A stretch of 64,000 nt of DNA from the sequence record OZ035799.1; one strand, 5' to 3'. The stretch's first letter is position 1; each line of letters starts with the position of its first letter. Under the pieces are notes generated by a model. The model made no database searches. It had not been told where the DNA came from and saw only the letters and a list, made by a program, of their open reading frames with translations. Source of the stretch: Justusliebigvirus alia. Both the position numbers and the translations under genes were made by a program. This document shows, piece by piece, positions 21,191 to 38,372 of the stretch.

Positions 21191-23350
21191 ATGAAACAGG
21201 CTATTTTTACTGTAACTCGAAATACGAGAGTAAATGCCAGTTCATTCAGCTATAAGACCGTCGATGGAACGGCGGTCGCTGGTAGAGATTATGTAGCTAA
21301 ACAGGGAACAGTAACGTTCCCTTCTGATGCAGATTCTGCTACTGTAGTGGTTGATGTATATGAACGTCCGGCAAACTCTTTAGATCTTTATTTTACTCTT
21401 GAGATTACTAGCATAAGTCAAAATAACATGATGATCAATGAAGAAATTCGTTGTGTTATTACGACTGATCAATCGAATACAACCCCGCTAACTTGGCCTG
21501 TTGTGAAGTCTAGAATGTTTGATCCTAAGTTTTGGACAATAGATTCTCAAGCAACAGAGAGTTGTTCTATTATCTCTAATGGTGATTCTTTCACAGCAAG
21601 AATGGTTAATAGGACAGTGGCTGGTCTTGCTGGGATTATTTGGTCAACTTACGATAAATATGATCACAAAGGATTAGGCTACCAAGAACATTCTGACTTA
21701 AGTAAAGAGAAACTTTGGTTTAAAATGGAACTTAGTCAAGGTGTTCCTGGATTAAAAGAAGAAAAATTAATACCATCCTTAACAGTGACACTGAAGGATG
21801 AAACAGTTCATTATGTATCTCTAAACTTTTATGCAGAAGAAGTTTCAGAAGATGGTAAGACAGCAACAATCAAACTAGATTTCTCAAATTTAAAATCTGG
21901 GCCAGAAAATGATATTGTTGTTGACACTACACAGATAGATAATATGTTCTTCTCCTTGATCTCCACAAGGTATCAAGAAATTGAAGATATTATTCCTGTA
22001 GACAATGTGGATCTTTCCTTTAAGTTTACCATACTGGAGCCTGATACTGGTTACAGTATGATGAATATGGGTAATTTAAATGTTCCGGCGCACACCATAA
22101 GAATGTGTACATCTTATGATGATATGTATAACCTAACCCCGGAGCGAGTTATTTCTAACACCTATAGATTAGGTTATAGAGATATGATTAACCATTATAA
22201 TGGTATGTCACACTATTATCAATTTAGTTGGGATGCTGGCTCTAATAAATGGGCTTTGAACAGAACAGAATATTTAAACCCAGCAACAGAAGCCTGGTTT
22301 GATAATTTCCACGCTAATGCAAAAGCTATGGGCTACACAGTAATGAACTCCTTAAGTTTTGAACTTATGAGTACAGTGTGTCCTGTAGAATGGGTACAAC
22401 ATACTTGGAATGATGATCTGGCTGCTACAGGTTATGAGCCACCAAGTTATGTTTTATCGCCTTCAATTGATGAAGGGATGAATTATTTACAAGGTGTAAT
22501 AAATAAGATAGCTTCTATATCCGCTGCTAATGATCTTCCGGTTATTATTCAGGTTGGTGAACCGTGGTGGTGGTATAACACAGCTACCAATCTACCGTGT
22601 ATTTATGATTATACAACCAAAGTTGCATTTAATAATGAAACTGGATTATATGCACAAGATGTTGGTACAGTTAAGAATTATAAAACTGGTACACCATATG
22701 ATGAATATTATGCATTCCTATCTAAAACATTAGGACTGCGTGTTGCTAAATTTGCAACAGATACTAGATTAGCATATCCTGGAGCAAAAGTTACATTGTT
22801 ACCATTTGTACCATCCATCTTAGGTAACGGTATGATGGAATTTGTTAACTTCCCTAAAGATTATTATATCCCAGAAAACTTTGACTTTTATTGTTCAGAA
22901 TGTTATGATTGGTTGTTGGAAGGTAAGATGGAAAGATCTTTTGACGCTATCACAATACCTAATGAGCAACTAGGTTTTAGTTATGATAAGATACATTATC
23001 TTGCAGGGTTTGTTCCAGATGCAACTCTAGCACCATTATATGGCTTTGATCCTGAATCAAACTATAGGACATATTTGTGGAAAATGATTATAGGTAATAT
23101 TGTATTGAATGACCAGAAGTTTGTTGGTTTATATCAATACATATGGGCTTATCCACAAATAATGCATGATTCAATAACTGTTCTTAATTCAAAATCCCAA
23201 GTTTTTTATATGGGTAATGTGCCTTTGAATTGCTATTTGCAAGATATCACTCTTAAACAGGTAAATGTTACGATTGCCACCATAAGTGGAATTACATTAG
23301 CCACTAAATCTGGAGAAGATTTAGTAACAACACAAAAATTTTATATATAG
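21191..23350 (+). CDS. Large structural protein (baseplate or fibre-associated)
   Basis: 719 aa ORF between baseplate genes and the first tailspike. Confidence 0.4.
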   Translation: MKQAIFTVTRNTRVNASSFSYKTVDGTAVAGRDYVAKQGTVTFPSDADSATVVVDVYERPANSLDLYFTLEITSISQNNMMINEEIRCVITTDQSNTTPLTWPVVKSRMFDPKFWTIDSQATESCSIISNGDSFTARMVNRTVAGLAGIIWSTYDKYDHKGLGYQEHSDLSKEKLWFKMELSQGVPGLKEEKLIPSLTVTLKDETVHYVSLNFYAEEVSEDGKTATIKLDFSNLKSGPENDIVVDTTQIDNMFFSLISTRYQEIEDIIPVDNVDLSFKFTILEPDTGYSMMNMGNLNVPAHTIRMCTSYDDMYNLTPERVISNTYRLGYRDMINHYNGMSHYYQFSWDAGSNKWALNRTEYLNPATEAWFDNFHANAKAMGYTVMNSLSFELMSTVCPVEWVQHTWNDDLAATGYEPPSYVLSPSIDEGMNYLQGVINKIASISAANDLPVIIQVGEPWWWYNTATNLPCIYDYTTKVAFNNETGLYAQDVGTVKNYKTGTPYDEYYAFLSKTLGLRVAKFATDTRLAYPGAKVTLLPFVPSILGNGMMEFVNFPKDYYIPENFDFYCSECYDWLLEGKMERSFDAITIPNEQLGFSYDKIHYLAGFVPDATLAPLYGFDPESNYRTYLWKMIIGNIVLNDQKFVGLYQYIWAYPQIMHDSITVLNSKSQVFYMGNVPLNCYLQDITLKQVNVTIATISGITLATKSGEDLVTTQKFYI

Positions 23351-23358: not shown

Positions 23359-25608
23359 ATGTCAACTACAATTACTAATTTACCCGAAACATCAAAAGTT
23401 AATGGTTCTGATTACCTGGTTTTAGACCAACCTGATAAGACTGTTAAAAGCACAGTTTCCAACTTTCTTACTGACACTGGGGTGGTTTTAGCCACCCAGC
23501 TAAAAGATGTTTCTGGAGCTACCAAGTATCCAGAACTTCAGATTGCACGCTGGCGAGACGAGGGAGATATCAGAGGGTGGGGCACGGAAACGAACGGTGA
23601 TGTTACCGAAGCAATCATTAAGGCGGTAGCGGCGACAAGCGGCACTATCATTGTGCCTTCAGGCAATTATACGGCCACGCCAACCTTGGAGCAGGTTCCT
23701 TCTGTACTGAAATTGCTTTCACAAGCAGAGTTTCGAGGATCATTAGATATCAATCTCCCTGCGGGAACAGTTAACCTTTCTGAAAAAACGGTAATACGTT
23801 CGCAAAATGTCCATAACCTGTCTATCTCTGGGGTTAAATACTCGACATCCCTAACCGGTCTGGTAAGTGTTAGTGGCAGTCCAAAGGCATATCTGGTAAC
23901 TATCTCTCTGGCAGATGCATCGAATGTTTCTGTCGGCGACGTGGTGATGATTCGCCACGACATCTCAGGAACTGGAGGGTATCACATTCACTGTGGTGGG
24001 TGGGTTGTGGATGCGGTATCTGGTAATAATGTCACCGTAAAAAATACCTGCCACCTTTCTGCATTCCCGACATCAACGATTACTAGTGGGTCGGTAGTCA
24101 TTCTTAAAAGCATTCTGAAATACACTGGCTGTGATGGTATTGTGGCTGCTGGCTCGGGATGTATTAAGACGATAAATGGTGTCGCTATTGTCGGTGATTA
24201 TGATCTGGCAACAGGCTCTGGAACTATCGGGGCACACGGCTTCTCCCTTACTACTCCAGACATAACCGTTGCTAGTCCAGACCCATCCAATGAAGTTTTT
24301 GATGCATCAGGCTGCATAGCTATTGGGCCTGATTTGGCGATTGTTGGGTTCGGTGAGCAGGGGTTTGTAGCGTCAGAGAGATCTGGTGTGGTTTCAAACT
24401 TTATATCTTCATGCTCTAACCGCAAGCGCGGTGTATATTCTGAAGGCGCTCATATACGCGGTAAATTTATGCTTTGCTCAGGGAATGGTGAGGATGGGAT
24501 TATTTCAGACATTGGTGGCGCAATTCAGGCTAACGGTTCAGTTTGCTCAGGAAATGGACTTAACGGTTTTTGGTCATTCAACCACAGTCTCTTGAGTGCT
24601 CCTGGCGGGATTTCGTGTGGTAACTTCACGAATGGTGCGGAAGCGCGCGGACCAGGTGCATTAAATCTGCAAAATGGGAAGAGCTATTTAAACAGGCTAA
24701 TTGGTGTAACCGCGTCAAATGGTGGGACGGTTATTTTTACTGGCTCAACATCAACGCAGAATGGCACGGATGGACTGGTTGCAGTTTATGATGGTTTGAT
24801 CTCTGCCGCCAATGCCAGCTCAGTGGGCAACGGACGCTATGGGGTTGCCGTAACTCACGCAAAAATTGTGCTTACAGGCTCAGGAAGCGTAAGCGGAAAT
24901 TCAACTGTAGATTTCATCGATAACGGCGAGGGTACTATAATTAAGCCGGATGGAACGATGCTGCCAAGAAAGGCTGCCCCGCAAAGCATCCTTTCTATTC
25001 GTAACGCCAATCTTTCCGGTGCTGATGTTACGGCATCATCAATTGGTGATATTACCGTCTCGCAAAGAAACACATCCTCGGGTGCATTAACCCCCCTGTA
25101 TGTATTCAAATCTGACGGAACCCAGCATCCAGTCAATGATGCCACGCAGAACCTTGGCAGGGCAAGCAATCGCTACAATGTTGGTTTCTTCGCTGGCGGA
25201 ACACAGTCAACTTCAGATGCCACACTTAAAGACCCTATCCGAGAGTTCAATCAGGCCGAACTCAATGCAGCAATGCGCATCTCGAAAATGTTTGGATTCT
25301 GGACGTGGCTTGATGATGACAATAAGCGTTTGCATGCAGGGACTACGGTTCAAGCAGTGTTAGCTGTTCTGGAAGAGGAAGGTCTAGACTGGCGTAGCTA
25401 TGGATTTATCTGTTTTGATGAATGGGATGATGAATATACCCCAGTAACCATTGAGGTAGATGGCGAAGTCGTTGAAACAGGGGAAATGAAATTAGTGCGT
25501 GAGGCTGGTTCTGTCTGGCAACTGCGCGATCAGGAATTTGACCGTTTCGTTATGCGTGGACTTTCTGAAAGGCTGAGTATTATAGAAAGTAAGCTGGATT
25601 TACTGTAA
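23359..25608 (+). CDS. Tailspike/tail fibre with parallel beta-helix and C-terminal intramolecular chaperone (peptidase S74-like)
   Basis: Gly/Ser/Asn-rich beta-helix repeats (SGNGEDGIISDIGGAIQANGSVCSGNGLNGF). C-terminal ~130 aa begins at TSDATLKDPIREFNQAELNAAMRISKMFGF, resembling the autocleaving chaperone domain of T5 L-shaped fibre and endosialidases. GC content rises sharply within the gene. Confidence 0.7.
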   Translation: MSTTITNLPETSKVNGSDYLVLDQPDKTVKSTVSNFLTDTGVVLATQLKDVSGATKYPELQIARWRDEGDIRGWGTETNGDVTEAIIKAVAATSGTIIVPSGNYTATPTLEQVPSVLKLLSQAEFRGSLDINLPAGTVNLSEKTVIRSQNVHNLSISGVKYSTSLTGLVSVSGSPKAYLVTISLADASNVSVGDVVMIRHDISGTGGYHIHCGGWVVDAVSGNNVTVKNTCHLSAFPTSTITSGSVVILKSILKYTGCDGIVAAGSGCIKTINGVAIVGDYDLATGSGTIGAHGFSLTTPDITVASPDPSNEVFDASGCIAIGPDLAIVGFGEQGFVASERSGVVSNFISSCSNRKRGVYSEGAHIRGKFMLCSGNGEDGIISDIGGAIQANGSVCSGNGLNGFWSFNHSLLSAPGGISCGNFTNGAEARGPGALNLQNGKSYLNRLIGVTASNGGTVIFTGSTSTQNGTDGLVAVYDGLISAANASSVGNGRYGVAVTHAKIVLTGSGSVSGNSTVDFIDNGEGTIIKPDGTMLPRKAAPQSILSIRNANLSGADVTASSIGDITVSQRNTSSGALTPLYVFKSDGTQHPVNDATQNLGRASNRYNVGFFAGGTQSTSDATLKDPIREFNQAELNAAMRISKMFGFWTWLDDDNKRLHAGTTVQAVLAVLEEEGLDWRSYGFICFDEWDDEYTPVTIEVDGEVVETGEMKLVREAGSVWQLRDQEFDRFVMRGLSERLSIIESKLDLL

Positions 25609-25673
25609 TTAAGAGCCGCTATCTCCTACTATGATGGCGGCAACCTTAAAATATTTAAGTGGGGAGCCACCTA

Positions 25674-25919
25674 ATGAGAAAATTTTTAATAGGTATGTTT
25701 TGTACATATCCTAATAATAAAGTCAGTTCTACTAAAGTTTGGAATGCTATTGGTATGATTGTTATGTCCAGTATGTTTATTTATTTGGGAATTGATAAAG
25801 AAATTCCTGAATGGATGGGCTGGGCTTTTGTTTTTATGATCACACCATCCAGATTAATGAAGAATTTAATAGATTTACGTTGGGGCAGATCACCTGCCCC
25901 TGATAAGGAGGATAATTAA
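25674..25919 (+). CDS. Small membrane protein (two predicted TM helices)
   Basis: Start moved to the ATG at 25674 (RBS GGGGAG). Hydrophobic segments FLIGMFCTY and IGMIVMSSMFIYLGI / WMGWAFVFMI. Confidence 0.4.
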   Translation: MRKFLIGMFCTYPNNKVSSTKVWNAIGMIVMSSMFIYLGIDKEIPEWMGWAFVFMITPSRLMKNLIDLRWGRSPAPDKEDN

Positions 25920-27406
25920 TGGCAGATTATGGTTTAACAGATGCTGGTTTTGTAATTCCAACGTTTGATGATATTTTAAATAATTATATGACAGCATTGA
26001 AAAACACTTTCGGTGCAGATACAGCTACATCTGAAGATACTGTCTTTGGTCAACTGTTCCGTATTATTGCATACACAGATTACACCCTTTGGGAAGGTAT
26101 GCAAGGTGTTTACAATACCCAAACCTTAGATGGTGCAGAAGGTATTTACCTTGATGAAATCTTCTCTAAAAGAGGTTTTTATCGTAAAGCTGCTTCTGCT
26201 GGTAGTGGTTATGCTTATGTTAAATCTAACAATAAGGCAGCTTGGACTTATGAGCTAAGCACAGATGTTTATTTTAATGCCGATAACGATTTGACATATT
26301 ATGTCAGTGCACCAACAATGTTGAATGCTAAGATTGGAGCATATACCATTTCTAAAGCAAACGCAACAGCTTCTGGTGAAACTTCTATTACTTTCTACAT
26401 TCAAAGTGCTATTGATGGTGGTCTTAACAGTAAAACATTAAGTCCTAGCAATACAAACTTTATTTTAGATCTCACGAATTTCATTAAAGCTAACGTATCA
26501 ACAACAGATCGTGCTTTAGTATGGAATGATGCTAGTAATGTTTATATGGGTTATAATCCAGAAGATAATGTTAACCCAATAGGTCTAGTAACACCAGTGA
26601 AATTTTACGCATCTATTGCAATTGGTACAAAATGGAGTGAAATTCCAGTTACGTGTTCAGACGTTGGTTATAATCCAGTAGGTACAGAAAGTATCACAGG
26701 TATTTCTTCAACGTTTACAGGCTTTTTAGATACAGGTAACTTCTATCCATTCTCTCCAGGTACAGATGTTGAAACAGATGCAGAATTCCGTTCTCGTTTC
26801 AATGATAATATGGATGAAGCTAATGCTGCTACTCGTGCTGCTATTGTTAAAGCTCTGCTACTGACAGATGGTGTGACAAAGGTTAAGATTTATGATAACC
26901 CTACATTACATGATCAGGAACATGCTCCAGCTATGACATTCCAGACTATTGTGTATGGTGGTACAGCAGAAGAAGTTGCACGGGTTATTTATAATACTAA
27001 GCCTATTAACACCTTAACTTATGGTACAACAGCAATTACTATCATAACAGAAGACGGCGGTCAAGAAGTAATTCGTTTTTCTCCTGGTGACAATGCTGAA
27101 TATTCACTTAGACTAGTATATCAAACTGGCAATGGTAGTGTGTTAAGTACAACAGAAAGAGAAAATATTGTTTCTGCTCTTTCAAATCTACAGGCTTATT
27201 TTGAGCTAGGGTCAACAGTAACTAACGATCAGATAAAAGGTGTAATTTATTCTGCACTTGCGTTCGGACGCTTGACTTCTCTCCGTGTTTATGTTAAACT
27301 TAATACTGAGGATGACAGTAAATATAATGAGGGAGATATCACTCCAGCGTACAATGTTGTACCATCCTTTGACCTTGATAATATTTCCTACGAGTACGGA
27401 GTCTAA
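25919..27406 (+). CDS. Tail fibre/baseplate-associated structural protein
   Basis: 495 aa ORF with overlapping stop/start; position only. Confidence 0.4.
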   Translation: MADYGLTDAGFVIPTFDDILNNYMTALKNTFGADTATSEDTVFGQLFRIIAYTDYTLWEGMQGVYNTQTLDGAEGIYLDEIFSKRGFYRKAASAGSGYAYVKSNNKAAWTYELSTDVYFNADNDLTYYVSAPTMLNAKIGAYTISKANATASGETSITFYIQSAIDGGLNSKTLSPSNTNFILDLTNFIKANVSTTDRALVWNDASNVYMGYNPEDNVNPIGLVTPVKFYASIAIGTKWSEIPVTCSDVGYNPVGTESITGISSTFTGFLDTGNFYPFSPGTDVETDAEFRSRFNDNMDEANAATRAAIVKALLLTDGVTKVKIYDNPTLHDQEHAPAMTFQTIVYGGTAEEVARVIYNTKPINTLTYGTTAITIITEDGGQEVIRFSPGDNAEYSLRLVYQTGNGSVLSTTERENIVSALSNLQAYFELGSTVTNDQIKGVIYSALAFGRLTSLRVYVKLNTEDDSKYNEGDITPAYNVVPSFDLDNISYEYGV

Positions 27407-27408
27407 AA

Positions 27409-28038
27409 ATGGCAGTGAGTGTTGACCATGTGACAACGTGGGATAGTATCAATGAAGATGTTAAAGACCTACTGATTGAAGATTTTAAATCTTCTCCGAA
27501 CATTGTCAAACTACTCTATATCATTTCTAGCGAAAAACAAAAGATAGATCAGGCAATGATCTATCTTGCCAAACACCGCTTAATCTCTACTGCAACTGGT
27601 AAGTATTTAGATCTTATTGGTGAAGAGATGGGGATGGAAAGAAATGGTGCTACAGATGAAGAGTATCGTACAATATTAAAAATCAGGGCTTATCGTGTTG
27701 CGTCTTCTGGTACGCGAGATGATATCATTGATATGTTCGCTCGTTTTACAGGAACAGAAAAAGAAACGATTAATACATACGTTGGATTAAATAAAACATT
27801 CGACGTATTCTTTTATAATTTGTGTCTACAATCCGATCAGGCAGTAGCACAGTTACTTAACGTTTTCCCGATCCTAAGTAGTTATCGCTTAGGTGCGAAA
27901 GCGGGTGCAGCCTTTGGTTTCACTTCCTATTATGCCACAACTCCACCTCATGGTATAGGTGGTTTAGGTTCTCTTTACACAGAGGCTGAAGGAGATGATA
28001 CAGGGCGAATGACTATGCTGATAGCTCAAATAGAATAA
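27409..28038 (+). CDS. Hypothetical structural protein
   Basis: ORF in the fibre module. Confidence 0.35.
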   Translation: MAVSVDHVTTWDSINEDVKDLLIEDFKSSPNIVKLLYIISSEKQKIDQAMIYLAKHRLISTATGKYLDLIGEEMGMERNGATDEEYRTILKIRAYRVASSGTRDDIIDMFARFTGTEKETINTYVGLNKTFDVFFYNLCLQSDQAVAQLLNVFPILSSYRLGAKAGAAFGFTSYYATTPPHGIGGLGSLYTEAEGDDTGRMTMLIAQIE

Positions 28039-28051
28039 GGAGTTACTCTTA

Positions 28052-29035
28052 ATGGCAAAGCCACAATACTACCCTGACTGGGCGACACAAACAGTAACCC
28101 TCCCAGGAACGGGAAACACAAACAAAATTAGACCAAAAGAAACCATCCGTAATGTTGGTATGGACTTTGGTCAGATTATGACTTGTGAAGAAATGAACTG
28201 GATCTTAAACAATATTGGGTCTTGGATTCGCTATATGCAAGATGAATTCTTCCCAACATTGCCTACTACATATCTTCCTATAGTCGGTACTAAAATTACA
28301 ATGGCAGGTGATGCTACAGGTGAAGTTACATGGAATGGTAATGCTGCTGTAACATTATCTATTCAAGTCGTAGATAACAGCCATAATCACTTATCAGCTA
28401 ACATTACAGACGCAACATCAAACCAAGTTGTAGGGAATGTCCTTGTTAAGCGTGATAATGGTGGTGCTATCTATGCAGGTGATATTTACACTTGTGGTAC
28501 AGGTGCTACAGATCCTGCAACATTATTTTTTAGAAACTATAATGGACAAACAGTAGGCAATATGTCTTCTGAACCAGGTGCAGGTGGTCAACTCTATATT
28601 TATAGAATAAATCCATCTACTGGAGGAACATCTTGTGGAGTCCGTTTGTATGATGCAGGTTATGTTTTAATAGACAATCCTCGTTCTAATTCTGGTCAAG
28701 ATACTGGCAATGGTAATGCTCTTGTAAGATTAGATTATCTTAACTCAAGACTAAACTCATTGCAAAGTACACTGCAAAATAATATTAACAACGTTAATAG
28801 CAACTTGCAAGGCCAAATTAATAGCATTAACAATAGAGTTTCTTCTGTTGTGTCTGCTATCCGTCTTGGAACACGTATCCAAGCTGGTGTATCTGAATCT
28901 CCTTTCTATGCTGGTCACGTGATCACAGGTTGGGGTTTTGGTGACAAGAAAGAACTTCGTGGTGCTTGGTATTGGTCAGCCCCGCTACAATATTATATTA
29001 ATGGTAGCTGGATAACAGTAACCAACGTTTCGTAA
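28052..29035 (+). CDS. Side tail fibre protein
   Basis: Central coiled coil rich in Asn/Ser/Gln heptads (LDYLNSRLNSLQSTLQNNINNVNSNLQGQINSINNRV). Followed directly by a fibre assembly chaperone. Confidence 0.55.
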   Translation: MAKPQYYPDWATQTVTLPGTGNTNKIRPKETIRNVGMDFGQIMTCEEMNWILNNIGSWIRYMQDEFFPTLPTTYLPIVGTKITMAGDATGEVTWNGNAAVTLSIQVVDNSHNHLSANITDATSNQVVGNVLVKRDNGGAIYAGDIYTCGTGATDPATLFFRNYNGQTVGNMSSEPGAGGQLYIYRINPSTGGTSCGVRLYDAGYVLIDNPRSNSGQDTGNGNALVRLDYLNSRLNSLQSTLQNNINNVNSNLQGQINSINNRVSSVVSAIRLGTRIQAGVSESPFYAGHVITGWGFGDKKELRGAWYWSAPLQYYINGSWITVTNVS

Positions 29036-29044
29036 GGAGAGTCT

Positions 29045-29596
29045 ATGAAAAAAGACGTTATTTTTACAGGTTTTGAATTGTATGAACCAGAATTAACAGA
29101 AGAAAATATTCTTTATCTTTCTGTTGGTGGTGGTTTTTTGCAAGACAAAGATGGTAACGACTGGTATCAGCTTCAAAAAACTTTGATGGTAGAATATCCC
29201 GACGCTTATTTTATTACCTTAGATGATAATAATATTGTACGTGGTGCTACTAAAGATGTTACTACCTATTTCCCTGCCGGACAATCTATTTTAGTTACAT
29301 ATAATGTACCAGATAAAATAGAAGATGAAAGTAATATTGGCTCTTGGCAATATGTTGAAGGTAAGTTTGTTCCTCACAATAATCTTGCTATTGAAGATGC
29401 TACTCTTAAGTTAGAAAAGGAGCTAACTTGGGCTACGAATCAAGTGTCTGCGATTCAAGATTTAGAGGAATTACAAGGTTTATCTGAAGAACAAAAAGAT
29501 TGGTTAGGAAAAGTTAAACTCTATCGTGCAACATTAATTCAAATTAACGTTGAAGATGCACCTAATATAACTTGGCCTACAAGACCTAAGAAATAG
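29045..29596 (+). CDS. Tail fibre assembly protein (Tfa-like chaperone)
   Basis: C-terminal motif EEQKDWLGKVKLYRATLIQINVEDAPNITWPTRP matches the conserved Tfa C-terminal signature (...W..Y...L..vd...ap.i.WP..P). Confidence 0.65.
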   Translation: MKKDVIFTGFELYEPELTEENILYLSVGGGFLQDKDGNDWYQLQKTLMVEYPDAYFITLDDNNIVRGATKDVTTYFPAGQSILVTYNVPDKIEDESNIGSWQYVEGKFVPHNNLAIEDATLKLEKELTWATNQVSAIQDLEELQGLSEEQKDWLGKVKLYRATLIQINVEDAPNITWPTRPKK

Positions 29597-29605
29597 GGGC
29601 AATGT

Positions 29606-29947
29606 ATGGAGCTAACAGAAGTATGGGATATCGCTAAAGAGGCGATTATCCCTCTTATTGGCGTAATCTGGGTGGTCTTCAAACAGAAGATAGATGATAT
29701 GGCAAGTGATTTGGATAAAATGGAAGACAAATACCGCGAACTAGAAAAGAAGTTGGTGTTTGTTGAATCCACTTATGCTACCAAAGCAGAACTTGCTCAA
29801 ATGCTTAACCAGATCAACTCTACATTAATGGCAAATAATACTGCCTTAGAACAGAAGATTGAAAAAATAATGGATTTAAAAAATGCTCCTGTTCAATTAA
29901 TGTTAGAGGAGATTACGAAGCGCACACAAAGTAAGGACAAAAATTAA
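29606..29947 (+). CDS. Membrane-anchored coiled-coil protein
   Basis: N-terminal hydrophobic helix IIPLIGVIWVVF followed by a predicted coiled coil; sits inside the fibre module. Confidence 0.4.
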   Translation: MELTEVWDIAKEAIIPLIGVIWVVFKQKIDDMASDLDKMEDKYRELEKKLVFVESTYATKAELAQMLNQINSTLMANNTALEQKIEKIMDLKNAPVQLMLEEITKRTQSKDKN

Positions 29948-32361
29948 TGGCGAATTTTCCAACATATCCTGCTACGACACTAGAACAAGGTGTTGATCTG
30001 GTTATATTCTCGTCTAACCAGATGCATGATGTTATTAATGGGGATGCTACAGCAACTGTAGAAACCGAAACAGGTTTAATACCTACACTGCGTAAAGCAC
30101 TTGTTGATAACTTCTTCTTTAAGAGTCCTGTTGCTTGGTCAGCAGGATCAACTGAAACTGTATTTAACCAGTTACGTTATTTTGAAAACGGTATCTTGAG
30201 TGGATACTATTATGCCCCATCTGCCACTACTGCTAACCCTGTACCTATGCAGGGTACACCTGTAGGAGATAGTAACTGGACTCTGTACGCTCTTAAAACT
30301 GAACAGTTAGCTTCAGATGTGTATCCTTGGTATTTTAAAGGTGCTACAGGATATGAAACAGAAATCAGTCCTCCTTATATCTTTGATAATGCTATTGTCA
30401 CCATTAACGGTGTAATTCAGATTCAAGGTGAAGCATTTACTATCAAAGATAGTAAAATTATTCTGGCAGAACCATTAGGTTTAGATCCGTCTACTGGTCT
30501 ACCTAACAAATTGTTTGCTTTTATTGGTAAAACAACAGCCTCTACTTCTTACGTAGAAAAAAACCTTTTGTCATCTACCACTGGTGCAGCAATGGTTGGT
30601 CTTCCATCTGGAGGCAACCTGTTACAAGCTCAATACTTTGTAACGCCTGAGCAGTTTGGTGCAATTGGTGATGGAGTTACCGATGATACCCAAGCAATTT
30701 TAAAAACCATTACTTTCGCTAACACGAATAACATTCAAGTACGTGCAGATAAGAATTATAGATTCACAAGCTCAATTGCTATGTCTGGTATTCGTTGGTA
30801 TGGTGGTACATTCACTGGTAACGGTGGAACAATGATTTCTACTGTGTCCTGTTGGATGGAAAACGTTCGCTTTGAAAAATGTTATGTTAAGATGTTAGGT
30901 GGTGATTGCCGATTCTATCGTAATATCTTCTCCAACGCAACATCTACAGCAGCATTCTTAATGCAAGCAATGACAAGTGAAGGTACGTTGGACTTCAGTT
31001 ACAACGAAATGTATGGTTGTAAATATGCGATCCTGCAACAAGGTACTGGAGAAGTAATGACCTACGGGCGTTACTCTAACAACTATATTCACGATATTAA
31101 AGGTGATGCTATTGAACTTAACGTAGTTCAAAAACACTACACTGAAGGTTTGATTATCGAGAATAACCACATTGCTAACGTAGATGCTTCTGGACAAGGG
31201 GCAAACTGGGGTATTGGTATTGGTGTAGCAGGTAGTGGCCCATATGGTGTTGATGTTCCTGATTCACAATATGTACGTAACTTCAGTATCGTTGGGAATA
31301 GGGTTTACAATTGCCGTCAATGTTTACACGTTGAAATGGGTAAAAACTTCACAATACGTGATAATGAAGTTTATCCTAACACAGCAGTTTCAACAGGTAC
31401 AGGTTTAACTACTTGTGGTGTTGCATTATACGGATGCCAAGATTTTGAAGTTGATGGTTTAACTGGTTATCTGCTTAATGATCCGTCTGTTTCAACACGC
31501 ATGGTCTTTATTGACTGGGGTGTTAACAGTGGAAGATATGCGGGGCCACCAATTAACTTTACAATTAAGAATTTGGATATTCCAGAATCTTCAATTGAGA
31601 TTGCAACATCTGGATCAGATGACTGGGAAAACTCTACAATTGTTAGTAATATCAATTGTAATGTTTTTAAATGGCGTGGGCTACCATCTAGCTCTACCTT
31701 TAATAATATTCGTTGCCGTAGTATTGACTTTATTGGTCAACACGGAAGCGGAGAAGGAAGTGGTGGCGGTTTCTATACTCGCAGCCAATTCACGTATATG
31801 AAGTGGGTAGGATGTACAGCACTTAGCGGAGATGAAACAACAGTTTCTTTTGCTAAAATCTACACTGATCGTTGCGATCAGGTTGGAAATAACTTTGGTG
31901 TTCCAACTGCTGTTGATGGAACAGGTCATCGTGGGCCAGTTTTAACTACTATCTCTGAACAATATTTTACAGCTTATGATGAATTCCCAGGTGGGCGTGA
32001 ATTCCCTACTGGAACAGTTATTCATTGTGCAAGCGGTAAAAAACATGTTGTTACAGTAGGTGGTGCTTTCTTTAGTGCCAACGAGAAAATAAAAGCAACT
32101 GTTACAGGTCAAACCTATCTACAGTCTAATGCTTTAAACTGGGCTAGTAATGGCTACGCTAAAGCAGCAGGTACTAAGATTGTTATTCCAGGTGCAGGTG
32201 CAAATGGCGGCGATCTTGTGACAACTATAGCACGTGCTACATATGTGACAAATAGTTTGTACACAATAGATATTGCAGATCCAATTGTAACACCTACAGC
32301 AGAGAATACACAAATTAAAGCTCTGAATCCTGTTACTTTTGTTACTGTCAACAATGCTTAA
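29947..32361 (+). CDS. Tailspike with pectate-lyase-like right-handed beta-helix (putative depolymerase)
   Basis: Motif TPEQFGAIGDGVTDDTQAILKTI resembles the N-terminal signature of pectate lyase superfamily / polysaccharide-degrading tailspikes. 804 aa. Confidence 0.65.
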   Translation: MANFPTYPATTLEQGVDLVIFSSNQMHDVINGDATATVETETGLIPTLRKALVDNFFFKSPVAWSAGSTETVFNQLRYFENGILSGYYYAPSATTANPVPMQGTPVGDSNWTLYALKTEQLASDVYPWYFKGATGYETEISPPYIFDNAIVTINGVIQIQGEAFTIKDSKIILAEPLGLDPSTGLPNKLFAFIGKTTASTSYVEKNLLSSTTGAAMVGLPSGGNLLQAQYFVTPEQFGAIGDGVTDDTQAILKTITFANTNNIQVRADKNYRFTSSIAMSGIRWYGGTFTGNGGTMISTVSCWMENVRFEKCYVKMLGGDCRFYRNIFSNATSTAAFLMQAMTSEGTLDFSYNEMYGCKYAILQQGTGEVMTYGRYSNNYIHDIKGDAIELNVVQKHYTEGLIIENNHIANVDASGQGANWGIGIGVAGSGPYGVDVPDSQYVRNFSIVGNRVYNCRQCLHVEMGKNFTIRDNEVYPNTAVSTGTGLTTCGVALYGCQDFEVDGLTGYLLNDPSVSTRMVFIDWGVNSGRYAGPPINFTIKNLDIPESSIEIATSGSDDWENSTIVSNINCNVFKWRGLPSSSTFNNIRCRSIDFIGQHGSGEGSGGGFYTRSQFTYMKWVGCTALSGDETTVSFAKIYTDRCDQVGNNFGVPTAVDGTGHRGPVLTTISEQYFTAYDEFPGGREFPTGTVIHCASGKKHVVTVGGAFFSANEKIKATVTGQTYLQSNALNWASNGYAKAAGTKIVIPGAGANGGDLVTTIARATYVTNSLYTIDIADPIVTPTAENTQIKALNPVTFVTVNNA

Positions 32362-32365
32362 TTAA

Positions 32366-32390
32366 AAAGGGGCGAAAGCCCCTTTATAAA
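32366..32390 (+). terminator. Hairpin terminator after the tailspike gene
   Basis: AAAGGGGC-GAAA-GCCCCTTT, then ATAAAAGG (weak U tract). Confidence 0.45.
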
Positions 32391-32402
32391 AGGAGTAGTA
32401 AA

Positions 32403-34364
32403 GTGATTTTAACACGTCCAAATAGTGCCATTGCAGACATGGTAGAGTCTCGCTATAGAAAGCGTAGAAGTTTTGCAAGTGGTTTTACCTTAAGAGATGC
32501 TCGTGAAGCATTGCTCTTTGAAACTGACGGTAACTACTATCAGTGGAAAGGTTCTCTACCTAAAGTTGTACCTGCTAACTCTACTCCTACATCTACTGGA
32601 GGGATTTCAGATACAGCTTGGAAAAATGTGGGTAATGCAGATGACATTGCTCAAATAGAATCAGAATTAGATGCTATTGAAGCTGAAATTGAAGATCTTA
32701 GAGAATCCATTCCAGAAGCTGGTAAATCAGCTTACCAGATTGCCGTAGACAATGGTTTCCAAGGTACTGAGACAGAGTGGTTGGCTTCTTTAAAAGGTGA
32801 TCCAGGTGCTCCATTAAAGCTGCTAGGGACACTATCTAATACCAACCAATTACCTACAACTGGAAACAATGCAGGAGATGCATGGATTGTAGGCGAGAAT
32901 ATGTATGCTTGGGATGGTACTGCTTGGAGAAAAGTAAACTCACAGGGGCCAGAAGGTAAATCAGCTTATCAAGTTTGGCTTGCAGCAGGAAACCAAGGTA
33001 CAGAACTAGATTATCTTGCTTCAATTAAAGGTGATAAAGGGGAACCTGGCCCAGAGGGGCCACAAGGTGTACCAGGTAATAATGCTAATGGTTTTGATTA
33101 CCAAGGTGCAGCTAATTCCGTTTCAGATCTTCCTTCTGCATCTCCTGGAAACACATCTCAAGCATGGAGTATTGGTACATATCTATACGTGTCAAACGGT
33201 GTAGAATGGATCAATATGGGCGCTATAGTGGGGCCAAAAGGAGATAAAGGCGACAAAGGAGATAAGGGTAACACTGGTGATTCTGCTTATCAAGTCTGGT
33301 TAAATGCTGGTAACGTTGGTACTATTGACGAATATATTGCCTCTCTGAAAGGAGAAAAAGGTGATAAGGGAGACAAGGGTGATCAAGGTGAGCAGGGTAT
33401 ACAAGGCTTGACGGGGCCAACTGGTGCAGGGTTGACAATTATTGATATTCTGACTGACACTTCTGAACTACCACAAACTGGAGAAGATGGTGATGGTTAT
33501 CTGATCAATAATGAACTTTGGGTCTGGTTGCAAGGAGCCACAGAGTGGACAAACGTTGGTCGTTTAGCTGGTACTCCAATCACTGCAAAAGGACACGTTG
33601 CGTCTGCAAGTGCACTTCCTCCTACATCCAATTACGGTGATGCTTATTTGACGGAAGATACAGGTCATCTTTACATTTACACCTATGATGAACAAACTCA
33701 AACTGCTGAATATGTAGATATGGGTAGTTTGAAAGGTGATAAGGGTGAGAAAGGTGACGCTGGTACTAACGGTACGGATGGTGCAACTTGGATTGTTAAA
33801 ACAACAGATCCAATTTCTAGTGATGGTAAACAAGGTGATTATGCCTTTAATATCTCCACTGGTGAGGTGTTCTTAAAAACATCTGCAACTGCCTGGACTT
33901 CTCAAGGTACACTGCCTAGCATCACAGATGCACCTAGTGACGGTAAGATCTATGCTCGTAAAGATGGAGCATGGGAAGAACTCACTAGTTCTGTAGATGG
34001 TCAAGATATAGTTCCAACAAAAGTAACAACTAATTTTATAGAGGTTACAGCATACACCAACAACTCTGTTACAGGTGACTGGACACCTCCAGGAACACAT
34101 AACATGAATGTGTTGAATCTTACTGGTAACGCTACTATAAAAGCATGGCCTGGTGTCGAAGATAGTACAAAACCTAAACCATTCTCTGCAATAGTTTATC
34201 TTATCCAAGATGCCACTGGAGGTCGTACTGTTACTTTAGATCCATCTTACAAAGTAATTGGTTCTAGTGATATTAATACAGATCCTAACGGAGTAACAAT
34301 ACTACAACTAACATATTGTGGTGTTGGCGATTACGTGGATGCTATTGTTGCTAAACGCACATAA
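32403..34364 (+). CDS. Tail fibre with collagen-like G-X-Y repeats and phage fibre repeats
   Basis: Three copies of a ~30 aa module (KSAYQIAVDNGFQGTETEWLASLKG, KSAYQVWLAAGNQGTELDYLASIKG, DSAYQVWLNAGNVGTIDEYIASLKG), each followed by collagen-like GDKGDKGDKG or GEKGDKGDKGDQGEQGIQG. Confidence 0.6.
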   Translation: MILTRPNSAIADMVESRYRKRRSFASGFTLRDAREALLFETDGNYYQWKGSLPKVVPANSTPTSTGGISDTAWKNVGNADDIAQIESELDAIEAEIEDLRESIPEAGKSAYQIAVDNGFQGTETEWLASLKGDPGAPLKLLGTLSNTNQLPTTGNNAGDAWIVGENMYAWDGTAWRKVNSQGPEGKSAYQVWLAAGNQGTELDYLASIKGDKGEPGPEGPQGVPGNNANGFDYQGAANSVSDLPSASPGNTSQAWSIGTYLYVSNGVEWINMGAIVGPKGDKGDKGDKGNTGDSAYQVWLNAGNVGTIDEYIASLKGEKGDKGDKGDQGEQGIQGLTGPTGAGLTIIDILTDTSELPQTGEDGDGYLINNELWVWLQGATEWTNVGRLAGTPITAKGHVASASALPPTSNYGDAYLTEDTGHLYIYTYDEQTQTAEYVDMGSLKGDKGEKGDAGTNGTDGATWIVKTTDPISSDGKQGDYAFNISTGEVFLKTSATAWTSQGTLPSITDAPSDGKIYARKDGAWEELTSSVDGQDIVPTKVTTNFIEVTAYTNNSVTGDWTPPGTHNMNVLNLTGNATIKAWPGVEDSTKPKPFSAIVYLIQDATGGRTVTLDPSYKVIGSSDINTDPNGVTILQLTYCGVGDYVDAIVAKRT

Positions 34365-34366
34365 TC

Positions 34367-34392
34367 AAAGCCCCTTCGGGGGCTTATTATTT
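34367..34392 (+). terminator. Rho-independent terminator
   Basis: AAGCCCC-TTCG-GGGGCTT followed by ATTATTT. Confidence 0.6.
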
Positions 34393-34403
34393 AAGGAGAT
34401 TAA

Positions 34404-37217
34404 ATGTATCCTATTCCTTTATTTATGTCAACAACATCAGCTTCAGTAGTAACAGCTACATCTATAACCACTTCATCTATTGGTATTGCAATAGTTGGTA
34501 GTAAAAAGCAACTGACATACACAGTTTCACCGGAAGATGGTGCGTTATTTGATATAGCTTTTTCATCTTCAGATAATACCAAAATGGTTATAGATAATAG
34601 TGGTATGATGGAGTTTGTTGCCGAAGGTGGTTTTGATGCAATAATGACAGCTAAAAATAATTTAGGTGCTGTCTTAACTGATCAATCTGGGGGTTATGCT
34701 TCAGAATTAAGCGTGTACACTGAAAGTCTATCAGCTATGGATGTAGGCACTACTCAACAGTTGGTTGCTACAATCAGTCCAGAAGGTGCTAAAGATCTTC
34801 CAGACATGGTAATTACGTACACCACAACAGATCCAGAAGTAGCTACTGTAAGCCCTACAGGATTAATAACTGCTCTTAAAGATGGCAATTGCCGTATAGG
34901 TTGTACTGCAACGTATCAAGGAACAGTTGTGGCCTCTGATAGTTCTTATTTAGGTGTTAATGCTATTCCTGTTATTTCTAATGTAACAGCCGTGGCAAAC
35001 AGCTATGGAGACGTTCGTGTTGCTTGGGATGTAACTGATCCTCTAGATGGTGATACTTATACTGTAGAAGTATTAGATTTAAGTAATAACAGTGTCCAGT
35101 GGACTACAACAACCACGAATACTTACGCCTACTTTGATATCTCTGACTCTATTCCTCTTTATGGGTTTGCTCCAACATACCTTAAAATTAGCGTTAAGAG
35201 CACCAAAGCAGCAGCCGTTATCTTTAATAACTCAATAGCTACAGATGATTCATTCATTAAAGAAGTTATTGTCTTTGCTGGACAAGATAACGTAAATGCA
35301 CACTTTACAGAACTATCTGGTGCAAATAAAGCAGCAATGAGTAGCACAACAGCCCGTAATGCATATGCTACGCAACGTGGTTTAGCAAATGCTGAAGTTC
35401 TTCCGTTAAATACAGCTTCTGGATCATCAGCAGCAGATAAATATGCTGACGATAAAGCTGGAACAGGTACACCAGACAACTACTGGTATGATCTGGATAA
35501 CACAGCAGATGGGCCATGCTTAACTAACTTTATCACTAAAGTCACACCTTATGCAAGTAAGGTTAAAGCCATTATTTGGGGACAAGGTGAAAATGATGCT
35601 GTATCAGCATCTTCAACTGTTGCAGGTAGATACAGTAACACTACACGTTACCATGATGCTACGATAGCTATCTTTGATAAGATGCGTACAATAGTTCCTG
35701 CTTCTCAAGCAAAAATTGTTTGGCAGATCCTGGGACGTTCTTATTTATATGGTGTAGAAGTTAATGGTGTGGATTGGCAGAAGTACAGAAATGTACAAAG
35801 AACCATCTCTACAGCACGTGATGATGTTATCATTGGTTCTTGGGTAGATGGTGCTGAACGTTACAGTGGTTATGTTTATGAAGAAGGTATTGATGGTCGT
35901 ATCCATTATATTTCTTCTGTATACCAAACAGCAGCTACAAAACTTGCTAAATCAGCAGCAGACGGTACAGACTTAACATCAACGTCACCTGTTTGGGTTG
36001 ATATGGCTGTTCCAACTGGAGCAACAGCTACTTCCCAACCTAATCAAGATACAATTTTAGCATGGGATGCTCAAGGCTATAGTAAACACTACTTCCGTAA
36101 TATTAACGTCTTAACCGCATCTGTATTAACTGAACAAACGCTTAATACGAACAGTTATACGTTTACCTATGCAGATCAAGTAGAACAATATGGTTTTGCA
36201 GCAGGAACTACTGTATTTGATGTTGCATATTATGACGAAGCAAATGATGTGTTATCTCCTTTAGTACGTTTTAATGTTAATGTTACACCAGGAACTGTCG
36301 TGATGGATTATGATTTGACACAAGAAACTCTTCCAGCAGATGTGCGCGTAAACAGGAGCAACCATTATGCTAGGGCTTCTGGAGATATCCTTGTACCGAC
36401 AGAGGTTTCTGCTCCTATAGCACCTTTAGAATATATTGGTACAACGCCACAAGGTAGACGTGTTGTAGCAGCCAGCCGTACATATATCTTTATCAACAAT
36501 AACTTGACAACAGCTTCCCCGTGGTTGAAGACGAACTTGACAGTTACAGCATCAACAATCAACTCTCCGGTTGGAACTACAGCTAACACTTACAAGTTAA
36601 CACCTTCTACAACTTCAGGACAACATATTTTATCAGCGGTGAATACAGCTTCTGATATTACAGCAGGTAAACAATGGGCTGCATCTGTATTCTTGAAACC
36701 AGACGGGATCACTAAAGTCAAGCTCAAATTGACTTCAGGAGATGAGGTTAACGAAGGGACTTATGATCTTGAAGCTGGAACATTTACAGGCACAGATGCA
36801 AATATGATCGACATGGGGAATGGTTGGTATCGTGTAATCTTACATAAAGTAACGATTGCTAAACAAGCCTCTATGACTTATGAGATTATAGCTTTGAATG
36901 CCAGTGGATCAGACACTTTTGCAGGAGACGGCACTGGAGGTCTTATTGCTTGGGTTCCACAACTTGAAATGGGTGATATGACAAACCCAGTTTGGGCGGG
37001 GACACCATTTGTTTGTACTTATGCACGAGACACAGATAGTGCTGCCACCTTCACTATTCCTAAGAACGGACACACTGGCGTGGATATTTACCACACAGAT
37101 GGAACTGTGCAAAGAGAGATTTTCACTGGCACAGCTACTACTTGGATGTTGTCATTCAACGCCGCAAGTGCGGATTGGGGATCGAAATTCATTTCTGGTT
37201 TGAAATATTACGACTAA
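34404..37217 (+). CDS. Receptor-binding protein with Ig-like (Big_2) domain and SASA-like carbohydrate esterase domain
   Basis: Big_2-like segment (VATVSPTGLITALKDGNCRIGCTA). Esterase motifs FAGQDNVNAHF (GQSN-like) and IIWGQGENDA (WxQGExD-like), typical of sialate O-acetylesterase (SASA) family. 937 aa. Confidence 0.55.
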   Translation: MYPIPLFMSTTSASVVTATSITTSSIGIAIVGSKKQLTYTVSPEDGALFDIAFSSSDNTKMVIDNSGMMEFVAEGGFDAIMTAKNNLGAVLTDQSGGYASELSVYTESLSAMDVGTTQQLVATISPEGAKDLPDMVITYTTTDPEVATVSPTGLITALKDGNCRIGCTATYQGTVVASDSSYLGVNAIPVISNVTAVANSYGDVRVAWDVTDPLDGDTYTVEVLDLSNNSVQWTTTTTNTYAYFDISDSIPLYGFAPTYLKISVKSTKAAAVIFNNSIATDDSFIKEVIVFAGQDNVNAHFTELSGANKAAMSSTTARNAYATQRGLANAEVLPLNTASGSSAADKYADDKAGTGTPDNYWYDLDNTADGPCLTNFITKVTPYASKVKAIIWGQGENDAVSASSTVAGRYSNTTRYHDATIAIFDKMRTIVPASQAKIVWQILGRSYLYGVEVNGVDWQKYRNVQRTISTARDDVIIGSWVDGAERYSGYVYEEGIDGRIHYISSVYQTAATKLAKSAADGTDLTSTSPVWVDMAVPTGATATSQPNQDTILAWDAQGYSKHYFRNINVLTASVLTEQTLNTNSYTFTYADQVEQYGFAAGTTVFDVAYYDEANDVLSPLVRFNVNVTPGTVVMDYDLTQETLPADVRVNRSNHYARASGDILVPTEVSAPIAPLEYIGTTPQGRRVVAASRTYIFINNNLTTASPWLKTNLTVTASTINSPVGTTANTYKLTPSTTSGQHILSAVNTASDITAGKQWAASVFLKPDGITKVKLKLTSGDEVNEGTYDLEAGTFTGTDANMIDMGNGWYRVILHKVTIAKQASMTYEIIALNASGSDTFAGDGTGGLIAWVPQLEMGDMTNPVWAGTPFVCTYARDTDSAATFTIPKNGHTGVDIYHTDGTVQREIFTGTATTWMLSFNAASADWGSKFISGLKYYD

Positions 37218-37250
37218 TAAAAAAGGAGCCTATTGGCTCCTTTTCTTTTA
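37216..37250. terminator. Bidirectional terminator at the point where the two gene blocks converge
   Basis: AGGAGCC-TATT-GGCTCCT flanked by an A-run upstream and a T-run downstream. Genes switch from plus to minus strand here. Confidence 0.7.
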
Positions 37251-37252: not shown

Positions 37253-37684
37253 TTAATCAGTGAAAATTACGCTTACATCTTCTTTAGAAAAGAGTTTATG
37301 ATCTTCACCTTTTGTCTCAAGAGTTTCATACAGGTTAAGAAGTTCTGAAACATCTTTCTCTACCAGTTTCTTCAATGTTGCAATTTTCTGTTTGCGACTC
37401 TTAATACGTTCAGCTACAACCTTACGTTGGTATCCAGCAGTACGATAACCTGAGAAAGTTACACCAGTGAGACTTGCAGTTACAGGATCGTAATGACGTT
37501 CAATCTGAAATTTATTAAAAGGTACAGCGTCATCACGAATAATCTTCCCGCCATTACTTACTTGACGAAGACCAGTAACTTGTTCTAGTCGTGCCATAGA
37601 AATCTTTGGAGACAGACCAGAGTCCAGGTTCATACCATTGTTAATCAGTGCTTTCAGGGTGATTTTGCTGTTCAGTGTACTCAT
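37253..37684 (-). CDS. Hypothetical protein
   Basis: 143 aa ORF with GGAGGA RBS located inside the 3' end of the methyltransferase gene; no recognised motif. Confidence 0.45.
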   Translation of the reverse strand: MSTLNSKITLKALINNGMNLDSGLSPKISMARLEQVTGLRQVSNGGKIIRDDAVPFNKFQIERHYDPVTASLTGVTFSGYRTAGYQRKVVAERIKSRKQKIATLKKLVEKDVSELLNLYETLETKGEDHKLFSKEDVSVIFTD

Positions 37685-38372
37685 TTAGTCGTTCCTCCGC
37701 TTGCTTAAAAATATTTACATCGGCTTCACAGCCTAAGTATTCTCTACCTGTTAAAAGTGCCGCAACTTGTGTTGTTGCACTTCCAGAGAAGAAGTCTAAG
37801 ACTACATCTCCTTCGTTGGTGTGTATATTAATAAGGTCACAAAACAAAGTCAAGTGTTTTTGTGTTGGATGAAAACGATCTGCTCCTTGATAGATAGGAT
37901 ACTCAAACACACCCTTATGGTAGGAAGCATTGAAGGTTGGCTTAGAACCTTTAACACAAACAATAGCCATTTCTTTAGCGTTACTAAGATAGTTAACACC
38001 ACTGTTGATGGGTACAGGGTTTGTTTTAATCCATTCGATAGTACGGAACATACGAAAACCAAGCGGTTCAAGGATTTCACGTAGCTCCTGGATCTTCCAG
38101 ATATCATACCAAACTATGCAAGTACCACCTTTTCTAAGCACCCTATAGGCTTCTTTGAATACTTCTTTAAAGTAAGGAATATCTACAACATCCCAATCAC
38201 CAAAGTTGTAAGATACACGGAATCTATCCGTATCTTTTCCAGTAGGCTCTCCAGACTGAAAATTTGTGTCACGAGAAATAGCATATGGTGGGTCAGTAAG
38301 AATCAAATCTACACTATTGCTTTCGAGGGTTTGCAGGTAGTTTAATGCAGTGTTGTTTACAAATTCGCTCAT
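37641..38372 (-). CDS. DNA methyltransferase (amino-methyltransferase, DPPY motif; N6-adenine or N4-cytosine)
   Basis: Motif IV LILTDPPYA precedes motif I VVLDFFSGSATT (beta-class order). No restriction endonuclease partner seen, so it looks like an orphan methyltransferase. Confidence 0.8.
   Translation of the reverse strand: MSEFVNNTALNYLQTLESNSVDLILTDPPYAISRDTNFQSGEPTGKDTDRFRVSYNFGDWDVVDIPYFKEVFKEAYRVLRKGGTCIVWYDIWKIQELREILEPLGFRMFRTIEWIKTNPVPINSGVNYLSNAKEMAIVCVKGSKPTFNASYHKGVFEYPIYQGADRFHPTQKHLTLFCDLINIHTNEGDVVLDFFSGSATTQVAALLTGREYLGCEADVNIFKQAEERLNEYTEQQNHPESTD

Follow-up and report, generated by a model that had tools for sequence, protein, structure and literature searches.

A phi92-like tail-fibre and baseplate-periphery module

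Positions 23359–37217 of the 64,000-nucleotide stretch of Justusliebigvirus alia analyzed here (sequence record OZ035799.1; the whole stretch is hereafter the window) almost certainly make up the part of a phi92-like myophage genome (Stephanstirmvirinae, Justusliebigvirus) that encodes the tail fibres and the baseplate periphery, with several sets of fibres that are expressed together. A preliminary description of this region had proposed that it encodes at least five distinct receptor-binding proteins (RBPs), several with enzymatic domains, suggesting a broad or multi-receptor host range with polysaccharide-depolymerizing and deacetylating activities. All the open reading frames (ORFs) that it listed are present at the coordinates and on the strand given, and these six genes, including that for a Tfa-type chaperone, lie in a single plus-strand block of structural genes on the ORF map.

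Nucleotide searches revealed a deposited phage genome, OZ035770.1 (“Justusliebigvirus alia”), that agrees with the 13.9 kb region at 100% identity and at equal coordinates, and 53 additional phage records, for the most part coliphages of Justusliebigvirus and Phapecoctavirus, that match it at 95–99% nucleotide (nt) identity; thus, the locus is not a chance pattern. The window accordingly corresponds to the first 64 kb of a phi92-like myophage genome. A comparison of the ORF map with the phi92 annotation, together with tblastn searches, established that the gp140–gp153 order of phi92 is matched one to one, including the embedding of the baseplate wedge genes between the fibre genes. The amino acid (aa) identity to phi92 by tblastn is 98–100% for gp141, gp142, gp145–gp147 and gp149–gp151, and 81% for gp148. 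By both its gene order and the high identity of its components, the locus is a member of the phi92-like (Justusliebigvirus) multivalent tail-fibre loci. The block ends at its 3' side in a strong plus-strand hairpin terminator (37221–37244) with a 10-bp stem followed by a T-run, beyond which lie convergent leftward genes; this was the sole noteworthy signal in promoter and terminator scans whose counts were not above those of shuffled controls. The identification of the genes, their synteny, the predicted folds and the boundaries of the cassette come from direct computation here; virion positions, receptors and the triggering of contraction come from published work on close relatives.

This multi-adhesin locus is an already known system rather than a new discovery, and a multi-receptor, broad-host, polysaccharide-degrading reading of it coincides with the published view of phi92-like phages. 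Later papers, citing Schwarzer (2012), credit these phages with several tailspikes and fibres that are expressed together, a “Swiss army knife” conferring unusually broad host recognition. The BASEL papers (2021/2025) recognize in the equivalent locus of phage PaulScherrer six lateral-fibre genes, a short tail fibre and the chaperone of the latter. The cryo-electron microscopy (cryo-EM) of phi92 (Chen et al. 2026) resolved three fibre sets on the wedge, each with six trimeric fibres, of which fibre I is gp143 and fibre III is gp147; fibre II was left without an assignment, and models of gp140, gp150 and gp151 failed to fit it. Proteomics of the related phage rV5 detected several fibre proteins in its virions. 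The established principle, namely that one phage carries several fibres and spikes for different surface glycans, which it exchanges through recombination at anchors that are conserved, is already used to explain the very broad host range of Justusliebigvirus, and the present locus leaves current understanding unchanged.

From phi92, with an identical gene order, the locus differs in the body of the spike occupying the gp143 slot and in the last gene, which is intact here and broken in phi92. Phage VEcB (MT932211) is 98.4% identical over 93% of the region and has the same tailspike cassette (99.4%); its alignment stops at 36287 and, therefore, VEcB differs in, or is without, the tip at the C-terminus of the last protein. 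In the gp143 slot of the original phage alia (MN850632) lies another tailspike. The BASEL phages Bas60–62 (PaulScherrer, EmilieFrey and JohannJBalmer) show 96–99% nt identity outside the cassette; their gp143-slot tailspike differs, with just the first ~54 aa in common, and their last protein, too, ends in a different allele of the C-terminal tip. These three phages were found by experiment to be NGR-dependent and to possess the widest lysis host range in the BASEL collection. The features specific to the present genome, i.e., a VEcB/536_P1-type tailspike cassette and a last gene that is intact, has another allele of the tip and is missing the nucleophile, are of modest interest.

An exchanged tailspike cassette in the gp143 slot

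The slot that in phi92 is occupied by gp143 (fibre I) holds here a 749-aa tailspike (23359–25608, plus strand), with a conserved N-terminal anchor at about aa 1–50, a beta-helix at about aa 80–600 and a Peptidase_S74 chaperone at aa 619–749. An AlphaFold2 (AF2) model based on 62 homologues has a mean predicted local distance difference test score (pLDDT) of 85, rising above 90 over about aa 80–520 with their regular short strands. Foldseek searches with the body returned, at a probability of 1.00, AP22 gp54, LKA1 gp49, Klebsiella depolymerases, CBA120 TSP3, Sf6 and HK620. Searches with the C-terminus returned 4UW8 (E 4.6e-11), 3GW6, and 3GUD with target-normalised template-modelling (TM) scores of 0.72–0.77; this is the fold of the intramolecular chaperones of T5 pb1, endoNF and GA-1/phi29-type spikes. 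Pfam likewise detected Peptidase_S74 (PF13884) at aa 619–676 (33.7 bits against a cut-off of 22). At the chaperone junction the motif S619-D-A-T-L-K624 fits the Ser/Lys dyad S-D-x-x-x-K, the form that the cleavage site takes in endoNF and T5 pb1. As modelled, the protein is a parallel right-handed beta-helix joined to an S74 chaperone fold. The fold, the S74 domain and the motif thus bear out the beta-helix tailspike with an autocleaving chaperone of the preliminary description, and autoproteolytic release of the C-terminal domain, the cleavage itself, is what these features would lead one to expect.

Pfam searches of sub-segments at relaxed thresholds yielded no family for the tailspike body, and related tailspike clusters bear Pfam Beta_helix or Pectate_lyase_3 domains. 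The resemblance to EndoN92, the phi92 gp143, is limited to aa 1–123 (66%) and the chaperone domain (34%); hence, the tailspike is not an endosialidase. In its S74 C-terminal domain, motif and predicted chaperone fold it is like the endosialidase and T5 pb1-type proteins (3GW6, 4UW8, 3GUD), but its body is a right-handed beta-helix and neither a sialidase beta-propeller nor a T5-type fibre. In comparison with ALITA and PaulScherrer, the shared part shrinks to the first ~54 aa alone.

The blastn breakpoints and boundary alignments, at ~23508 and ~25677, delimit an exchanged cassette of ~2.2 kb (23509–25676, plus strand), whose flanks are common to all relatives. The 24001–26000 bin, which covers most of the cassette, has a G+C fraction of 0.445 as against ~0.38 in the flanking 2 kb bins. 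Dozens of protein clusters from contigs of ~80–150 kb have only the first ~54 aa in common, with unrelated bodies on that anchor that include endosialidase, Beta_helix, Pectate_lyase_3 and GDSL lipase domains. Conversely, the body of the present tailspike is found in other phages and prophages, at 72–93% identity, on P22-type Head_binding or CBA120-type Tail_spike_N anchors. Such an arrangement of an anchor and exchangeable modules was already analyzed for the same RBP subtype by Pas et al. (2023). For annotation, the value of these results is that the host-range-determining slot is located and that its cassette also occurs in a candidate therapeutic phage, studied with E. coli 536, as well as in E. 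coli prophages, including those of O6:H16 strains.

At its right end, the breakpoint falls at the ATG at 25677 and adjoins a small hairpin (25655–25674). The following ORF, for a gp144-like protein, was called from a GTG at 25659; the alignment of relatives favours the ATG at 25677 as its start, which is probably the true one.

At the nucleotide level the relatives of the cassette are Phapecoctavirus 536P1 (99.2%) and Sashavirus 536P12 (86%), along with prophage tail-fibre genes in 16 E. coli genomes (85–89%), two of which are labelled O6:H16; the prophage context was confirmed for one of the 16. This distribution suggests phages of one collection with a common host-specific module. We also observed that OZ035770.1, although labelled “Justusliebigvirus alia”, bears the VEcB-type tailspike, unlike the original alia (MN850632), and that the same cassette is found in OZ035728.1 and OZ035768.1, records named Phapecoctavirus 536P1 and Sashavirus 536P12.

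E. coli 536 is of serotype O6:K15:H31. For phage 536_P1 on this strain, resistance has been reported to map mostly to lipopolysaccharide (LPS) synthesis, with overproduction of the K15 capsule acting as a mask and not as a receptor. From the 99.2% match to the 536P1 cassette, the O6:H16 prophages and the LPS-linked resistance to 536_P1, we infer that the most likely target of the tailspike is the O6 O-antigen. A capsule (K antigen) or other shared glycan as the target instead is a possibility that we take seriously while leaning away from it. It would accord with the occurrence of homologues in prophages of O6, O11 and O153 strains, for which Pas et al. proposed a non-O receptor such as a K antigen, with the role of the gp143 slot in phi92 as that of a capsule depolymerase, and with the Klebsiella and Acinetobacter capsule depolymerases among the fold matches. 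However, the O11 and O153 homologues are just 62–66% identical and the nearest ones are those of 536P1 and of prophages in the 16 E. coli genomes, two of them labelled O6:H16; moreover, K15 masked 536_P1 rather than serving as its receptor, and LPS mutations dominate among the resistance determinants.

The colanidase tailspike and the collagen-like fibre

The second tailspike (29947–32361, plus strand; 804 aa) is 99.5% identical to phi92 gp150, the crystal structure of which (PDB 6E0V/6E0W) it matches with E = 0 over aa 180–804 (6E0V). It also matches phrog_6117, “colanic acid degradation”, with E 4.5e-270. As phi92 gp150 is a characterized colanic-acid hydrolase that cuts the beta-1,4 Glc-Fuc linkage, the protein is by sequence a beta-helix glycoside hydrolase acting on colanic acid. 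Its earlier designation as a pectate-lyase-like spike holds as a statement about fold only, the enzyme being a hydrolytic colanidase.

The next gene (32403–34364, plus strand) encodes the 653-aa homologue of phi92 gp151 (98%), a fibre with short collagen-like segments and an N-terminal Tail_spike_N adaptor. In Pfam searches, both Tail_spike_N and Collagen (32.5 bits against a cut-off of 27.2) were above threshold and Fibritin_C fell just under it (19.4 bits against 21). Four G-X-Y runs of 6–9 triplets each (aa 210–227, 277–294, 317–343 and 445–462) are set between repeated globular units. The protein is, accordingly, collagen-like, in agreement with its first description as a collagen-like fibre, with segments that are short and do not form a long collagen stalk.

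The last protein of the block: an SGNH-like domain with an altered nucleophile

The last gene (34404–37217, plus strand) codes for a 937-aa modular protein that is the intact form of phi92 gp152+gp153 and comprises, in order, Big_2 Ig domains, a beta-sandwich, an SGNH/SASA-like domain, a further beta-sandwich and a C-terminal tip. It had been described as a Big_2 plus SASA-esterase protein. Pfam recovered Big_2 with 51.4 bits; the SASA (PF03629) match, at 16.2 bits against a threshold of 24.8, is below significance and covers profile positions 105–164 only. The AF2 model of aa 190–937, of moderate confidence (mean pLDDT 65), displays an alternating alpha/beta domain, for which Foldseek returned N4 gp65 first (E 1.8e-27), followed by the CE20 deacetylase 9H4U and many GDSL/SGNH esterases. 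With a Foldseek probability of 1.00 to 5JD3, 7E16, 3RJT, Axe2, PatB and 9H4U, the domain has an SGNH fold in this moderate-confidence model. A profile of the same domain searched against PDB sequences aligned with two tandem domains of N4 gp65 (E 5.4e-38) as its sole match and with no classical SASA structure.

As no solved esterase could be aligned by sequence, the catalytic residues were judged by a family-wide motif count, using 80 related clusters from an exhaustive search of 1.84 billion representatives and 61 aligned domains. The block-I motif of the 937-aa protein is GQDN (35286–35297, aa 295–298) as against the family consensus GQSN; that is, the nucleophile Ser is replaced by Asp. This position is a Ser in 46 of the 61 aligned domains and an Asp in four, the Asp being confined to the Justusliebigvirus clade and its nearest neighbours, with GQDN found in every aligned Justusliebigvirus orthologue. 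The first domain of N4 gp65, by contrast, keeps the nucleophile Ser (GES). Block III (WGQGENDA) and the catalytic His of the RIHY motif are retained in the 937-aa protein; in the nearest relatives with a GGDN motif, the His is partly gone (RIQY). The replacement of the nucleophile makes esterase activity doubtful and leaves deacetylation unassignable to this protein, so that, of the earlier description, Big_2 and the SGNH/SASA-like fold stand and the assignment of esterase activity to this protein falls. We infer that what was an esterase domain in the ancestor is now probably non-catalytic, or non-canonical at the least; for annotation, activity of the “esterase” should not be taken for granted.

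That the protein is nonetheless an active SASA-type carbohydrate esterase that deacetylates host polysaccharide seems unlikely to us. The SGNH/GDSL fold (with target-normalised TM scores of 0.5–0.65 to the CE20 deacetylase and acetyl-xylan esterases in Foldseek), the weak Pfam SASA match, the preserved WGQGENDA block and RIHY His, and one phage record in which the orthologue is called a “tail carbohydrate esterase” speak for such an activity; they are countered by an Asp in block I of this protein and all its aligned Justusliebigvirus orthologues where the bulk of the family has a Ser, by the partial loss of the His in the GGDN relatives and by a SASA score short of the cut-off.

The C-terminal tip (aa 629–937; 36288–37217, plus strand) is allelic: it is 63% identical to that of most Justusliebigvirus orthologues and absent from phi92, and the rest of the protein is >98% identical to the Justusliebigvirus orthologues. 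This disparity marks the tip as a second allelic hotspot. For the final ~310 aa, the PDB match is Rcc01080, the head spike fibre of RcGTA (6TB9, E 5.6e-14). In phi92, over the compared stretch 21321–22983, the gene is frameshifted into the two ORFs gp152 and gp153, has a ~218 nt deletion (window 34994–35211) and has lost its last 932 nt; in ALITA, the orthologue is split into two coding sequences. We considered the 937-aa protein as a candidate for fibre II of phi92 and rejected it, as the gene is broken in phi92 though fibre II is still visible.

Bringing the two variable genes together, the 937-aa protein could be a pseudo-esterase adhesin, descended from an N4-gp65-type SGNH/SASA ancestor with the Ser-to-Asp change fixed across the genus, which now only binds an acetylated host glycan and has an exchangeable RcGTA-spike-like tip as a second specificity; the swapped-in tailspike would then be an O6 O-antigen module circulating among myophages, a Sashavirus-classified record and E. 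coli prophages. We offer this joint proposal tentatively, as one that stops somewhat short of being probable.

Fibre genes upstream of the first tailspike

The fibre arsenal begins ~5 kb upstream of position 23359, with the homologues of gp141 and gp142 at 18306–23350. The large conserved tail/fibre protein homologous to gp141 (18306–21182, plus strand) is 99.8% identical to its phi92 counterpart and matches phrog_2871 (“tail protein”); its orthologue in PaulScherrer carries a lateral tail fibre annotation. It gave zero Pfam matches, even at relaxed thresholds on sub-segments, and zero PDB sequence matches. It is preceded by a small tail fibre protein (17833–18306, plus strand; phrog_9017 “tail fiber protein”, E 1.3e-69), which by synteny with phi92 is the positional homologue of gp140.

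The homologue of gp142 (21191–23350, plus strand; 99% identical to phi92) combines Calx-beta, NCTSP_N (PF23844, E 4.3e-21) and NCTSP TIM-barrel (PF23845, E 1.2e-81) domains, and its PDB matches are N4 gp64 and gp65. The NCTSP_N and TIM-barrel domains are thus common to it and to N4 gp65/gp64 (PDB 9LC0, 9YF4). In N4, these domains, along with the gp65 domains that the SGNH-like domain of the 937-aa protein matches, belong to the sheath that surrounds a podovirus tail; in the present phage, their counterparts are distributed over two separate myovirus fibre genes. Based on homology to N4 gp65, the literature deduces that gp142 binds the NGR glycan and, in the BASEL annotation, names a glycan deacetylase in its homologue. 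By this analogy, the protein just outside the region first described is the likely NGR binder, which is of value for annotation, and the deacetylating activity ascribed to that region probably belongs to this upstream gene.

The baseplate wedge, the short tail fibre and small embedded genes

Between the two tailspike genes lie the wedge genes and a short tail fibre. The homologue of gp145 (25919–27406, plus strand; Baseplate_J, phrog_6; 99.4%) and that of gp146 (27409–28038, plus strand; phrog_4056, E 2.5e-81; 100%) are baseplate wedge subunits; cryo-EM identified the gp145 wedge of phi92 as the attachment site of fibres I and III. They are followed by the 327-aa homologue of gp147, i.e., fibre III (28052–29035, plus strand; phrog_4465, E 1.7e-108; 98%), which has a coiled-coil-like segment at about aa 227–270 and an N-terminus that matches the short tail fibre of the phiTE phage baseplate (PDB 9CUY). 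Its gene is directly followed by one for a 183-aa tail fibre assembly chaperone homologous to gp148 (29045–29596, plus strand; Caudo_TAP, 39.6 bits against a cut-off of 22.1; phrog_136; 81%), the order typical of the Mu GpS/GpU type. The literature connects this fibre/chaperone pair to Mu GpS/GpU and phi92 fibre III, the chaperone being of the Mu GpU/lambda Tfa type. What had been described as a coiled-coil side fibre with its own Tfa chaperone is therefore correct as to the fibre, the coiled coil and the chaperone, but is a short tail fibre (phi92 fibre III) and not a side fibre. In the cryo-EM paper, fibre III is downward-pointing and Mu GpS-like, and is proposed to function in stable adsorption and to help trigger contraction; the BASEL work ties the short tail fibre to the LPS core glucose.

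Two small genes are embedded in this part of the locus. One encodes a small membrane protein homologous to gp144 (25659–25919, plus strand; phrog_1322; 95% identical to phi92). The other encodes a 113-aa small lipoprotein homologous to gp149 (29606–29947, plus strand; phrog_15210, E 2.1e-70; 99%), which is annotated as a lipoprotein in phi92. The latter, situated between the fibre chaperone and the colanidase, shows weak similarity to Rz-like spanin/lipoprotein families; superinfection exclusion is a possible function for it.

Composition and proposed working of the arsenal

By analogy with the cryo-EM of phi92 and the proteomics of rV5, several fibre types may be expected together on the virion. 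The wedge of gp145 and gp146 homologues would display several co-expressed trimeric fibre sets at once. The gp143 slot would hold an exchangeable beta-helix spike, presumably glycan-degrading, which folds with its S74 chaperone and then cleaves it off. Infection might begin with reversible binding and the clearing of outer glycans by enzymatic or lectin-like spikes with divided targets: the O antigen or capsule for the cassette spike, colanic acid for the gp150 homologue and NGR for the gp142 homologue. The short fibre homologous to gp147, assembled with its Tfa chaperone, would then engage the LPS core in the final contact, and a rearrangement of the baseplate periphery would lead to sheath contraction. 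The homologues of gp141 and gp151 and the 937-aa protein may be further glycan-binding or virion-decorating components. Host range would shift mainly by recombination, with conserved N-terminal anchors allowing modules to move between unrelated phages and prophages.

Several points weigh against a full arsenal of this kind. The virion composition, receptors and enzyme activities are all transferred from relatives. Given that cryo-EM accounts for only three fibre sets in phi92 and that models of gp140, gp150 and gp151 are unfit for fibre II, these proteins may not all be baseplate RBPs. As it is disrupted in phi92 and divided in ALITA, the last gene can be dispensed with on laboratory hosts at the least, and the AF2 confidence for its product (pLDDT 65) is moderate. 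A functional baseplate arsenal of three fibre sets, in which only some of the five proteins are baseplate RBPs and at least one, most likely the collagen-like fibre (32403–34364) or the 937-aa protein, decorates the head, neck or tail or serves as an accessory adhesin that is dispensable, is hence an appreciable possibility, if one that we consider the weaker. Beyond the three sets seen in phi92 and the state of the last gene there and in ALITA, it draws on the resemblance of the gp151 and gp140 models, unfit for fibre II, to the head spike of phage Pa223. Three features of the 937-aa protein point the same way: its N-terminus is like Ig-domain major tail/structural proteins (phrog_28902, phrog_215), its counterpart is annotated in phi92 with a “lambda protein V like fold”, and its C-terminus matches the RcGTA head spike fibre. 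Against this reduced set, the genes are co-oriented in one block with the baseplate genes and run to a common terminator, the Tail_spike_N domain of the gp151 homologue is a module of the CBA120- and G7C-type branched tailspike complexes, and rV5 virions hold several fibre proteins. Returning to the module with several co-expressed fibre sets, the count of at least five RBPs is uncertain in both directions: two fibre genes upstream had been missed, and the three sets of phi92 together with its broken last gene would lower the number.

Neighbouring genes

Directly downstream of the fibre block lies a minus-strand ORF (37641–38372) whose homologue in PaulScherrer is annotated as a Dam-like N6-adenine methyltransferase. 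Further on, the minus-strand DNA polymerase ORF (41065–43644) encodes 859 aa. Its homologues in PaulScherrer and phi92 are 3315 nt long, and that of PaulScherrer has an annotated 735-nt intein; by its shorter ORF, the polymerase gene of the present genome appears to be an intein-free allele.

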